DNA of 64,000 bases from a virus: IMG/VR virus record IMGVR_UViG_2918493637_000007, one strand, 5' to 3'. The notes beneath the pieces were generated by a model that had not been told where the DNA came from, made no database searches, and saw only the letters and a program-made list of their open reading frames with translations. Position numbers and translations under genes: made by a program. Of the stretch, positions 4,758-8,500 are shown piece after piece (positions within the stretch are counted from its first letter, which is position 1; each line of letters starts with the position of its first letter).

Positions 4758-5006
4758 TCAGACCCGCGGCGGGAACGACCAGGTGCCCGGCTGATCCGGG
4801 CCACCCTCGAGCACGCATTCCGGCAGCGGCTCGGGCTTCCGGCCGGGCGCGAACACCGTCAGCGAGCAGATGTCGCCGCCGTCGCCGGCCTCGAACACGC
4901 CGGTGACGATCGCCGCGTAGGGCTGATCCGAGATCGAGACGCGCTCGGCGTCCCTGGGGTGGTAGTGGACGATGCGTCCGACGCTGGGACGCTGGTGTGC
5001 GGGCAT
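4758..5006 (-). CDS. Small conserved-looking phage protein (PSVGRIVHY motif)
   Basis: ATG at 5006 gives an 82-aa MPAHQRPSVGRIVHYHP...PGTWSFPPRV downstream of an operator and promoter. Confidence 0.7.
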   Translation of the reverse strand: MPAHQRPSVGRIVHYHPRDAERVSISDQPYAAIVTGVFEAGDGGDICSLTVFAPGRKPEPLPECVLEGGPDQPGTWSFPPRV

Positions 5007-5044
5007 GGCTGCCTCCGCTGAGTGAGTAAGTGCTGACTGATCTT

Positions 5045-5070
5045 TTATAGCGAGCGCGCGTCGGGTTTTG
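5045..5070 (-). promoter_or_regulatory. Phage-specific promoter-like motif
   Basis: Minus strand CAAAACCCGAC-GCGCGCTCG-CTATAA, followed by the operator at 5024-5039. Confidence 0.7.
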
Positions 5071-5142
5071 CGTGGGTCGCGCTGGCTTCTGGTGTGGGTA
5101 GCTATGGCCATCCACAGCAAGATAAGTCAGCGCTGAATTGGT

Positions 5143-5169
5143 TTGAAAAATCGACGTTTGTGCTATCTT
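5143..5169 (+). promoter_or_regulatory. Sigma70-like promoter for the putative ncRNA
   Basis: TTGAAA (5143-5148) and extended -10 TGcTATCTT (5161-5169); operator at 5124-5139 immediately upstream. Confidence 0.5.
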
Positions 5170-5175
5170 AGGGGG

Positions 5176-5530
5176 TGAGGGACGCAGGTGGCCGCCCGCG
5201 TCCCTCGGTGTTGGTAGCTGGCAGCGCTACTCGTTACATGAGCCCGAGCGTGATGGTCACAGACCACTCACCGCTCGGGTTTCGTGTAACCGTGACCCGC
5301 AGAAGCGGGATCATCAGCACATTGCATCACCTCCTCCCCTGCCTTCTCAAGACGGCGGCGGCACTCGCCGTTAACCCTCGGTCCAAGGGGGTCGCGTAGG
5401 GAGGAGACCCAACGAGGCCAATGTAGCAGGCAACTCCGAGTCTACAAAACCGGCCGAGCGTCTCGTCCCCAACATCCACCGTTTTGCGGGGGTCGGCCGT
5501 CTCTTGTCCCCGGTATCCCCAAGAGCGCCT
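5176..5530 (+). ncRNA. Putative structured non-coding RNA with an anti-Shine-Dalgarno segment
   Basis: No credible ORF; at least six stems; G-U pairs form on the + strand (A-C mismatches on -); ATCACCTCCT at 5326-5335. Confidence 0.6.
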
Positions 5531-5584
5531 ATTGACTGACGCATTCTCGGGGCGCGTCGGCCGGTGTGGGCTTGACAGGCGCGA

Positions 5585-8500
5585 TCAGTCGCTCATGAGG
5601 GCGGCGGCCACCTCGAACACCTCGTTGAGCTTCGCCTGCTTGGAGGCGTCGTGGAAGATCTCGCCCGGGGCGAAGCCGATCACGAGATTGGCGTCGAGGC
5701 CCTTGTGGTAGACGACCTCGCCGGCGACCTCGGACGCCTTGCCCTTGAAGTCGGGGATGAACTGCCGGACCGTGGTCGAGCCGAGCAGCACGATCACCGG
5801 CGGCTTGAGGATCTCGATCTCGCGGGCGAGGTAGGGCCCGTAGGTGGCGATCTCGCTGGCCGAGACCTGCTTGCCGGCCTTGGGCCGCTTGATGAGGGCG
5901 GTCCAGTAGGCGTCGGCCCGCGACAGGTCGTTGGCGTCGAGCGCCTCCTGGACCCACTCGCTGACGCAGTAGGAGCCGCGGTTGTCGTAGCTCATGCGGC
6001 CGGAGGTGTCCTCGCCCTTCGAGGGCGCGTCGAGGATCACCATGAAGCGCATGTTCTTGCCCGTGGTCATCTTCACCGGCATGCCGTCCTCGGCGCAGCC
6101 GTCCGAGTAGTCGGCGAACACCTCCAGGATCTTGATCCGGCTGTCCCGGTCGCGGTGCATCTCGCGGCTGATCGGGACGTGGGCCGTGATGAGCCCCGGG
6201 ATCAGCTCGCGCTGGTCCTTGATCCGGTCCGGGTGGCGTCGAGGTAGCTGGCCTGGCTCGATGTCGGCGAAGGCGCCGACCAGGTCGAGGAGCCCGACGT
6301 GCTTGACGTTGCAGCGCCGCCGCTCGACGCGGGCGGTCAGGTCCTCCTTCGACTTGAACGGGCCGGCCCCGTCGCCCCGCGCCTTCAGGATGGCCTCGGT
6401 GGTCAGCGCCGAAATGCCCTTGATCCGGTTGAACGGCATGCACAGCCGCGTGTCGGTCACGATCTCGAACTGGTTGGTCGAGTGGTTGATGTCGGGCAGA
6501 TCCACCTCGATCCCCATCCGCTCGGCGTCCTTCATCAGGCCCGGCAGCTTGTCCTGGGGCATCAGGGTGAGCGCCGCCGCGAAGAACTCCACCGGGTAGT
6601 GGGTCTTGAGATACATCGCCTGGTAGGAGATCAGCGTGTATTCGACCGAGTGGCTCTTGTTGAAGCCGTAGCCGGCGAAGCCCTCGATCTTGTCGAACAG
6701 CAGACCGGCCCACTCGGGCGTGCAGTCCACGGTCGCGACACAGCCCTCGACGAACTTGCCGCGCTCCTTCTTCATCTCCTCGGGGAGCTTCTTACCCATG
6801 ATCTTGCGGAGCTTGTCGGCCTGCGCGCCTGAGTAGCCGGCGATCACCTGAGAGGCCTTCATGACCTGCTCCTGGTAGACGAACACGCCGTAGGTCGGGC
6901 TGAGCACCGGCTCGAGGAGCGGGTGGTCATAGTCCACGCTCTCGATGCCCTGCTTGCGCTTCCAGTAGCTGTCCATCATGCCCGACTCCATCGGGCCCGG
7001 GCGGTAGAGCGCGGTCGCGGCCGTGATGTCGTCGAAGGTGATGGTGCCGTCCTTGCCCAGCTCCTTGAGCAGGCGCCGCATGCCGCCGCCCTCGAACTGG
7101 AAGATGCCCGTGGAGATCGCGCGGGCGAAGTTGTCGAGCACCTTCGGCTCGTCGAGCGGGATCCGCAGTAGGTCGACCTTCTTGCCGCGCCGCTTGCGGA
7201 TGTAGTCGAGGGTGAGCGCGATCAGGTCCAGGGTGTTGAGGCCCAGGATGTCCATCTTCACCAGGCCCTGGTCCTCGACGATGCGCTTGTCCCAGCACAC
7301 CACCGGCAGATCCGGGACCGGCTCCTCGCCCTCCTTCGGCTTCGAGGGCGCCTTGCGCCGCTCGATGACGGCCCGCTCGACCAGATCGACGCCGCCGACG
7401 ACGACGCCGGCCGCGTGCTGCGAGAGGTTGCGCAGGCAGCCTTCGAGCTTCTTGGCCGTGTCCCAGATCTCGGGGTTGCCGGCCGCGAACGCGCCGATCT
7501 CCGTCACCTCTGCGGCGGCCTCGGCGAGCTTGACCGGCTGGCCGTGCTTCTTCGGCACGAACTTGGAGCAGCGATAGAGCTCCTCGTTGAGGCCGAACAC
7601 GCGGCTCACGTCCCGGATCGCCGAGCTGGCGCCCAGGCGCCCGTAGTTCGAGACGCCGGCCACGCGGGCGGTGCCATACTTGCGGATGAGATACTGGAAC
7701 ACCTCGTGCCGGCGCTCGGACATGAAGTCGAGGTCGGCGTCGGGAAGGTCGATACGCTCGGGGTTGATGAAGCGCTCGAACAGGAGCTCGAAGCGGAGCG
7801 GATCGCAGTCGGTGATCCCCATCAGGTAGGCGACGAGCGAGCCGCCCACGGAGCCGCGGCCGGGGCCGACCAGGATCCCCTGGCTCTTGGCCCACACGAC
7901 CACGTCCTGCACCAGGAGGAAGTAGCCCGAGAAGCTGAGGTTCTTGAGCACGGTCAGCTCGTAGCGCAGCCGCGGCTGGTAGACGTCCTTGAGCTCCTGG
8001 TTCGACGGGCGGTGCCCGAACACCGGGGCGGTGAAGCGCTCGTGCCAGCCCTTGGTGCAGGCCTCGACGACCGCCTTGAACTCGTCGGGCGCCATGATCG
8101 GCAGCGAGGGCGCGGACTTGGCCCAGGCGAAGGTGACCATGTCGACGAGGCGCGCGGTGTTCTTCATGCCCTCGGAGAAGCGCCCCTTGGTCGGCACGCC
8201 CCGGAACTCCTCGAGCCGCTTGGCGGCCGCCTTCACGTCGCGCACCAACTCCTGCAGGGTCTTCGGATGCAGGTCGCGCACCGGGTTGAACCACGCCCAG
8301 GGCTCGGTGAGCTTCACGTTGCGGGTGACGGCGTTCATGATGTCGGCCGCGTCGGCGCTGCCCTCCTCGTAGAGGGCGGGCGCGGCGACCAGCGTCGGCA
8401 GGCCGAGCTCCTCGGCGAGCTGGAGCGCCTTGACGTTCTGGGTGTCCCAGTAGGGCGTGTCGATCGGCACCAGCGTGCAGAACGTATTAGACGCGCTCAG

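Follow-up and report, generated by a model that had tools for sequence, protein, structure and literature searches.

A conserved small-ORF mRNA and a predicted cis-antisense RNA form a candidate type I toxin-antitoxin-like module of Methylobacterium carried by a phage-plasmid

Several toxin-antitoxin (TA) systems of type I resemble, each in some part of its design, the locus described here. The closest overall are bsrG/SR4 and txpA/RatA of Bacillus subtilis, in which the antitoxin overlaps the 3' end of the toxin gene; in tisB/istR-1, zorO/orzO and dinQ/agrB of Escherichia coli and aapA1/IsoA1 of Helicobacter pylori the primary toxin transcript is translationally inert, and hok/sok of plasmid R1 and par (fst/RNAII) of pAD1 are post-segregational killing modules. 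To our knowledge, nearly all type I TA systems described so far belong to Gammaproteobacteria, Epsilonproteobacteria and Firmicutes, and the catalogue of small RNAs (sRNAs) and small proteins of the methylotroph genus Methylobacterium is nearly empty; we found no report of a type I TA system in Methylobacterium or Rhizobiales in the literature. Here we describe a ~270-bp module, one copy of which (5142-5447) occupies a gap between genes in IMG/VR virus record IMGVR_UViG_2918493637_000007 (64,000 nucleotides, the whole of which is called the window below) and is carried here by a phage-plasmid. Very probably the module consists of a minus-strand small open reading frame (ORF) and a convergent plus-strand cis-antisense RNA, and we cautiously favour, from sequence comparison, a type I TA or TA-like function for it as a new, undescribed family. 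General definitions of type I TA are given in PMC3919570, PMC2887945 and PMC8594479.

An original prediction, made from the letters of the window, had placed a large structured plus-strand RNA in this gap and had found no credible ORF there, weighing only frames of 2 and 19 codons on the minus strand. A 28-codon GTG ORF (5320-5234, minus; Table 1) overturns the second of these statements. Every full-length copy of the module carries an ORF of 27-31 codons on the minus strand, which begins at one aligned position, mostly with GTG and in a few copies with ATG, and all copies keep a Shine-Dalgarno (SD) sequence, GGAGGTGA / GGGGGTGA, 7-9 nt upstream of this start. Internal stops are absent in 71 of 72 genus-wide ORF matches. 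The synonymous share of single-nucleotide codon differences is 0.47 in the ORF frame vs 0.13-0.32 in the other five frames, variability increases from codon position 2 to position 1 to position 3, and 20 of 51 copies contain an extra Glu codon, an indel of 3 nt that preserves the frame. Within the peptide, P, W, S and T-I-T are invariant. By these comparative signatures the minus-strand ORF is a conserved coding gene. Because GGAGG sits 7-9 nt before its conserved start codon, the string ATCACCTCCT at 5326-5335, which is present as described and which had been taken for an anti-SD effector, is the complement of a real SD, that of the ORF itself; it also probably lies beyond the predicted end of the antisense RNA.

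Transcription of the small ORF would begin at a promoter whose layout is shared by 51 copies (-35 TTGCA/GAGACA, N16-17, -10 cTAnnnT, followed by GTTGG and a CCUUCC-type box); the predicted start in the window, G5413, is the first base of the conserved GTTGG, and conservation ends upstream of the -35. Helices were aligned and folded with RNAalifold as two halves, each on its proper strand, as an alignment of the whole plus strand made with MAFFT misregistered them. For the minus-strand 5' untranslated region (5'UTR), RNAalifold predicts pairing between the SD region and a CCUCC box close to the mRNA's 5' end, in a helix that encloses two hairpins and a short closing helix. Across the copies 96.3% of cells are paired in this structure and two-sided changes occur in 10 of its 24 pairs; none of 500 shuffles reaches any observed measure, a comparison that overstates independence because the copies are related, and sliding the partners gives at most 54% paired. 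The strand on which the 5'UTR structure works is indicated by its wobble pairs: read as minus-strand RNA, it is 96% paired with 111 G-U pairs, vs 80% and 9 G-U pairs on plus. Likewise, in 32 of 34 copies minus gives the better energy for the duplex between box and SD, and a small hairpin that is inserted in one clade forms GNRA loops on minus only (GCAA, GAAA, GCGA). For hairpin R7, minus gives the more stable form in 25 of 34 copies (G-U pairs: 54 minus vs 21 plus), and for hairpin R1, at the other end of the mRNA, in 29 of 34 (49 vs 17 G-U pairs; 90% vs 84% paired); R1 has two-sided changes in 11 of its 13 pairs. The predicted mRNA would thus run for ~250 nt, from ~5413 to the hairpin at 5206-5177, and would be silenced in the manner of toxin mRNAs, its SD being occluded by a covarying, minus-strand-specific helix that closes the 5'UTR. 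A general sequestration of ribosome-binding sites, which had been proposed for the RNA of this gap, is not supported by the evidence. The SD has one conserved partner only, the CCUCC box in the mRNA's own 5'UTR.

On the plus strand, a conserved promoter of sigma70 type faces the ORF. The extended -10 element that had been noted upstream of the stems is present, and both it and a -35 are conserved in ~50 homologous copies. The 51 unique copies share TTG at -35, N17 and a -10 of C(T/C)A(T/C)nT, with a hairpin beginning ~7 nt later, and conservation drops sharply upstream of the -35. Inside the ORF lies the long stem-loop R2, which favours the plus strand: paired cells make up 98% on plus, including 49 G-U pairs, vs 88% and 1 G-U pair on minus, and in 32 of 34 copies plus forms the more stable stem. 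The earlier statement that wobble pairs are G-U on the plus strand therefore holds for R2, and fails for R1, the 5'UTR helices and the helix between SD and anti-SD box, all of which favour minus. Four pairs of R2 show two-sided changes; compensatory changes alter the peptide on both arms (P..G to A..A, S..L to T..I), the change from S..L to T..I yielding U-G on plus and C-A on minus, and when R2 is read on minus a third of copies have C-A mismatches. At its apex, the third codon positions of ACC and ATC are invariant. Directly 3' of R2 on the plus strand follows a U-run made by the codon that precedes the conserved Asn/Ser; where Lys stands there it is encoded by AAA in 31 of 32 cases, and where Arg stands there, by AGA or AGG in 15 of 18, while in the genes of the window (10,856 codons) AAA accounts for 1.6% of Lys codons, and AGA and AGG for 0.0% and 2.6% of Arg codons. 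Because a GC-rich hairpin precedes a U-run bought with otherwise avoided codons, R2 and the U-run are best read as the intrinsic terminator of a plus-strand transcript.

The predicted antisense RNA would be complementary to the 3'UTR of the mRNA and to ORF codons ~11-28, and the segment 5175-5292 folds at z -7.1. The linker between its hairpins varies in length and sequence and contains no conserved trans-acting seed, which argues for a purely cis-antisense role. An undescribed plus-strand non-coding RNA, as originally predicted, is thus likely, and it matches no Rfam family; its predicted length is ~115 nt and not ~350-400 nt, it would be a cis-antisense partner and not a free-standing RNA, and it belongs to a chromosomal family and not to a phage. 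The stems that had been listed for the gap are all present in the sequence, and the region 5170-5535 is more stably folded than its dinucleotide shuffles (z -4.1 plus, z -2.5 minus). Comparison of the copies separates these stems: R1, R2 and R6 are conserved with compensatory changes, the stem GTGACCCGC/GCGGGATCAT is not structurally conserved between clades, and CGGCCGA/TCGGCCG and CTCTTG/CAAGAG (5451-5526) fall outside the conserved module. Comparative evidence thus places the ORF, both promoters, the SD-occluding fold and the working strand of each hairpin.

Table 1. Coordinates of the module's features in the window; hairpins are given on the strand that comparison of the copies favours.
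Feature	Positions	Strand	Details
Antisense promoter	5142..5169	plus	-35 TTTGAA (5142-5147), extended -10 TGcTATCTT (5161-5169); predicted start ~5175-5177
Predicted cis-antisense sRNA, ~115 nt	~5176..5290	plus	5' hairpin (R1 complement), linker, terminator stem-loop, U-run; 3' end inferred
Hairpin R1 (GAGGGACGC/GCGTCCCTC)	5177..5206	minus	predicted 3' hairpin/terminator of small-ORF mRNA
Small ORF	5234..5320	minus	GTG 5320-5318, 28 codons, TAA 5236-5234; peptide MLMIPLLRVTVTRNPSGEWSVTITLGLM
Long stem-loop R2	5238..5286	plus	inside ORF; apex AUGGUC-ANN-GACCA invariant; predicted intrinsic terminator; U-rich tract 5284-5291
Shine-Dalgarno region GGGGAGGAGGUGA	5327..5339	minus	9 nt upstream of GTG; read from sequence
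5'UTR hairpin R6 (ACGGCG/CGCCGT)	5351..5372	minus	conserved loop; two-sided changes in 6/7 pairs, 98% of cells paired
5'UTR hairpin R7	5375..5389	minus	two-sided changes in 3/4 pairs
Anti-SD box UCUCCUCCC (CCUCC)	5399..5407	minus	near mRNA 5' end; predicted to pair with SD region 5327-5339
Small-ORF mRNA promoter	5413..5447	minus	-35 TTGTAG (5447-5442), -10 TACATT (5425-5420), predicted start G5413

BLASTN against related genomes revealed that the core of the gap (~5160-5420) recurs in other Methylobacterium genomes at 70-83% identity, often more than once per genome, and that its flanks do not; with an nhmmer profile, the full ~250-270-bp unit was recovered in every fetched locus. The invariant core was also scanned across one genome for each of 185,579 species, candidates being checked with the nhmmer profile. 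True full-length copies were found only in Methylobacterium and Methylorubrum, plus one unclassified proteobacterial metagenome-assembled genome, and the exact-core matches in non-Methylobacteriaceae genomes all failed the profile and were set aside as chance. The copies number ~76 in total, of which 51 are unique. A peptide-profile search located the module in 50 of 146 Methylobacterium species genomes, in 1-5 copies each and mostly on the chromosome, and the whole module is duplicated in tandem, ~440-450 bp apart, at two loci (L033:980-1724 of genome G120 and G156:C74:66352-66882).

The window itself is 99% identical (BLAST) to the 116.8-kb circular Methylobacterium oryzae plasmid NZ_CP090351.1, a phage-plasmid because genes for terminase, major capsid, tape measure, tail proteins and lysozyme stand beside RepC on one record. 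No phage record and, among plasmid records, only this near-identical M. oryzae plasmid gave a BLAST match to the module; the phage-plasmid has therefore borrowed a chromosomal Methylobacterium module, which is not a phage invention. Many chromosomal copies occupy stable syntenic positions. Neighbouring genes differ across loci, the genes that flank the module converge on it, and because no neighbour is conserved the module is autonomous and not the leader of a downstream gene. A leader-peptide attenuator was rejected on the same grounds, no co-directional downstream gene being conserved and the gene beyond the 3' hairpin pointing towards the module in the two syntenic groups.

Searched with the peptide profile, 301 genomes from the same GTDB family gave one copy outside the genus (L097), at E 3.6e-6 in a 2.3-Mb low-GC genome; around that genome no further relatives were found. 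It encodes the peptide MIWIPRFRIHFNKKAEGWSLTITLSFINI, in which the peptide motif is kept, and it retains the internal stem and the 3' hairpin via compensatory changes, the latter containing two U-G pairs when read as mRNA, and has a local hairpin that would occlude its SD. Its antisense -10 is TAATAT, followed by GGGTGAAGG, in a promoter layout as in the rest of the family, and a UUUU run follows the antisense stem. Other weak profile matches (L101-L103) were spurious, lying antisense within a binding-protein gene, and one locus (L098) is a truncated relic.

Within the window, the module's gap measures 577 bp, from the dnaE stop (5585, minus) to the start of an 83-codon gene (5007, minus), and carries no annotation in NZ_CP090351.1. 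For the 83-aa protein encoded just downstream of the module (4758-5007, minus), neither Pfam nor NCBIfam gave a match. A perfect 10-bp palindrome, TCAGCGCTGA, at 5126-5135, just upstream of the antisense -35, corresponds to the operator of the original prediction; it is not kept in chromosomal copies, is specific to the window, and may be part of the promoter region of the 83-codon gene. On the other side, the minus strand of 5440-5530 holds the hairpins CUCUUG..CAAGAG and CGGCCGA..UCGGCCG followed by GUUUUGU, and the hairpins at 5451-5526 are probably the terminator of the dnaE operon, with which the -35 of the small-ORF promoter overlaps. In a metatranscriptome other than the two described below, a contig covering 5434-5636 contains the 3' end of dnaE and stops at this putative terminator.

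The window contains no match to any Rfam family at or above the gathering score. At E<=10 only CC2171 (RF01867; 20.2 bits) and anti-hemB appear, both sub-threshold and on the minus strand, and these weak matches arise because of the SD, the GTG context and the terminal hairpin. CC2171 itself was rejected, as the window (20.2 bits) and its plasmid twin (24.9 bits) score far below the gathering cut-off of 75, and true CC2171 loci elsewhere in the same genomes score 86-100 bits and encode an unrelated small ORF. At four such loci on Methylobacterium chromosomes (L106:1501-1670, minus, and L107, L108 and L109) a conserved GGAGGTGATCCA and GTG precede a conserved ORF of ~22-25 codons (MSHCHQP...RTW(I/T)VASG...) ahead of a terminator hairpin, so that CC2171 may be a small-protein mRNA or a dual-function RNA there; the sRNA has reportedly been validated by Northern blot in M. 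extorquens. A weak match to the CC2171 model on another chromosome (L111, genome G001, ~1501-1646) likewise holds a small ORF with SD and GTG followed by a terminator hairpin, and its hydrophobic 26-aa peptide, MSYEAVTATLAVAGAVVAVLRAAGKL, could be a small membrane protein or the product of a toxin-like gene. Two further comparisons were negative: the Methylobacterium-1 motif (RF01712) is absent from five genomes that carry the module, and the module's invariant core is absent from the sequence tables for Met2624 and Met1153 of M. extorquens, the only experimentally studied Methylobacteriaceae-specific sRNAs (bioRxiv 10.1101/2022.01.24.477521).

The peptide matches no family in Pfam, NCBIfam, PHROGs or PADLOC, no PDB sequence and nothing in the ESM Atlas. 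A profile search of 1.8 billion proteins, in a library representing 15 billion, returned only 11 unnamed gene calls that end in the peptide, together with two large repetitive proteins that proved unrelated, and by exact look-up a single 35-aa variant, also unnamed, has ever been called as a gene. With the family alignment, AlphaFold2 models a two-stranded beta-hairpin (mean predicted local distance difference test score 90.4; strands 7-15 and 21-29 of a 30-residue query), and we predict from this model that the peptide is a 28-aa amphipathic, Thr-rich beta-hairpin. Its grand average of hydropathy is 0.75-1.25 and its longest uncharged run is 10-14 residues.

Parts of the window were found in six RNA libraries. 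Two metatranscriptomes from different studies yielded error-free contigs covering 5160-5364 and 5187-5369 with the flanking genes uncovered; a discrete RNA species over ~5160-5370 therefore exists. The contig ends at 5364 and 5369 lie at the foot of, or just inside, hairpin R6, downstream of the anti-SD box, and would be compatible with a minus-strand mRNA whose 5' end is processed and whose SD is free.

Taken as a type I TA-like system, the module would operate as follows. The minus-strand primary mRNA would be poorly translated, its CCUCC box pairing with the SD across two hairpins. The antisense RNA of ~115 nt, ending at R2 and the U-run and complementary over its full length to the ORF's 3' half and the 3'UTR, would pair with the mRNA and lead to mRNA decay or a block of translation. 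Should antisense synthesis stop, ex. upon loss of the phage-plasmid, the mRNA would be translated, possibly from the 5'-processed species with a free SD, and the peptide would harm or arrest the cell. The transcript ends, the RNA-RNA interaction and the toxicity of the peptide are inferred. A single and indirect hint of toxicity comes from decaying copies: those with a broken ORF (L021, stop codon lost; L057, frameshift) retain a good antisense promoter, those without a recognisable antisense -10 (L038, L034 and L082) also have a disrupted ORF, and no intact ORF with a dead antisense promoter was seen among the copies. Such asymmetric decay is what a TA pair predicts.

Several observations weigh against this interpretation. 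The decay pattern concerns ~5 copies. The metatranscriptome contigs are strandless and reach beyond the terminator predicted for the antisense RNA. With no U-tract next to it, R1 would be a non-canonical terminator, as would R2 in the window, where the U-run is short (UUUCGUGU), and a simple scanner found no promoter or terminator in 4900-5700. The peptide lacks the hydrophobic helix characteristic of most type I toxin families, having no hydrophobic run of >=18 residues and a beta-hairpin as its model.

The same architecture could also encode a regulated, non-toxic small protein, ex. a stress-induced beta-hairpin regulator or a membrane modulator, whose level the antisense RNA merely tunes. 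We consider this possible, if appreciably less probable than not: the absence of the usual transmembrane-helix character, the lack of any match to a toxin or defence family and the many chromosomal copies at stable syntenic sites all speak for it, whereas the patchy multi-copy spread, the tandem duplicates, carriage by a phage-plasmid, one copy standing alone in a low-GC genus that is unrelated, translational silencing at two levels and the asymmetric decay are all typical of addiction or selfish modules. A more specific form of the type I TA interpretation, advanced by analogy and doubtful as it stands, would make this the first type I TA family of Alphaproteobacteria with a new mode of toxicity, in which oligomers of the hairpin form, in the inner membrane, a minimal beta-barrel pore and the phage-plasmid uses the module for post-segregational killing or abortive infection. 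The peptide is rich in Ser and Thr, and its 9-residue strands alternate hydrophobic residues with Thr (VTVT / SVTITL), a pattern that resembles the membrane-inserting hairpins of beta-barrel pore-forming toxins.

It is unlikely that only the minus-strand mRNA is real, in which case the plus-strand promoter would be an AU-rich tail past the mRNA's terminator hairpin, and the A-rich codons and the G-U bias of R2 would be due to something else, for instance translational pausing or folding of the mRNA. The scanner result is consistent with such an arrangement, as are the two contigs that start at 5160, 15 nt upstream of the predicted plus start, so that at least some of the RNA would be minus-strand or derive from a longer transcript. 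However, a terminator tail would not need a -35 TTG conserved at a fixed spacing of 17 nt, R2 on minus has C-A mismatches in a third of the copies, and codons with 0-2.6% use elsewhere are near-fixed exactly where a U-run follows the plus-strand hairpin. Very improbable, finally, is the originally predicted phage RNA of ~350-400 nt that titrates ribosome-binding sites through its exposed anti-SD or acts in trans in the manner of the cuckoo sRNAs: the lower fold z of the whole gap on plus and the contigs reaching 5364-5369, by which RNA over 5326-5335 exists on one strand or the other, would agree with it, but its motif complements a conserved SD that precedes a conserved start codon by 9 nt, occurs singly and beyond the predicted terminator, the helices of the 5'UTR half favour minus, neither the window nor its homologs match Rfam, and the family is chromosomal and not phage-borne.

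Both promoters, the ORF and both predicted terminators are placed, and ~75 natural variants are available. A methylotroph genus in industrial use would gain a regulated small protein by this family, and the module may supply a maintenance or defence function to a Methylobacterium phage-plasmid. One stretch of DNA appears to bear three constraints at once, those of a protein, of an mRNA fold on one strand and of a terminator on the other, the last of which is visible because codons that the genome otherwise avoids are nearly fixed.

Cuckoo sRNAs (alpha-r14, r15 and r35; CcsR) are alphaproteobacterial RNAs with CCUCCUCCC loops (PMC3927594), and the module shares with them a C/U-rich anti-SD-like string, multiple copies per genome and alphaproteobacterial hosts. 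The likeness on which the original prediction drew goes no further: in the module the motif occurs once, is the complement of a functional SD and comes without a conserved single-stranded seed; there are no repeated exposed loop motifs; the conserved product of the other strand is a protein; and no Rfam covariance model matches, the cuckoo families giving no match in the window at E<=10 or in seven homologous loci at E<=0.1. As regards type I TA systems, the module has a small conserved ORF of <~60 aa and an mRNA that sequence comparison predicts to be silenced by its own structure. Multiple or tandem copies, which the module also shows, are named in PMC8594479, citing Fozo 2010, as a criterion used to find type I loci. 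The main departure is the predicted beta-hairpin peptide, which would be unusual for the class.

With hok/sok and par the module shares a small-ORF mRNA predicted to be inhibited by fold-back together with a predicted antisense RNA, residence on a low-copy extrachromosomal replicon and chromosomal paralogs; the peptides are unrelated, and the module has no leader or mok-type reading frame. As regards an inert primary transcript, tisB, zorO, dinQ, hok and aapA1 come nearest. The likeness to tisB, zorO, dinQ and aapA1 lies in a structured 5'UTR that hides the ribosome-binding site, in copies that can be multiple and tandem, and in a shorter, 5'-processed translatable form, which is conceivable for the module given the contig ends at 5364-5369. 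Their antitoxins pair at the 5'UTR or standby site, while that of the module is predicted to cover the 3' half of the ORF. The arrangement comes closest to bsrG/SR4 and txpA/RatA, from which the module differs in its alphaproteobacterial host, in having no sequence similarity, in a peptide predicted to be a beta-hairpin and not a transmembrane helix, and in an SD occluded by long-range pairing with the 5' end of the mRNA. In common with these two systems it has predicted convergent transcription, an antisense RNA predicted to cover the 3' part of the mRNA over ~100 nt, an ORF of <60 aa, and the form of an autonomous module on prophage-like or mobile DNA.

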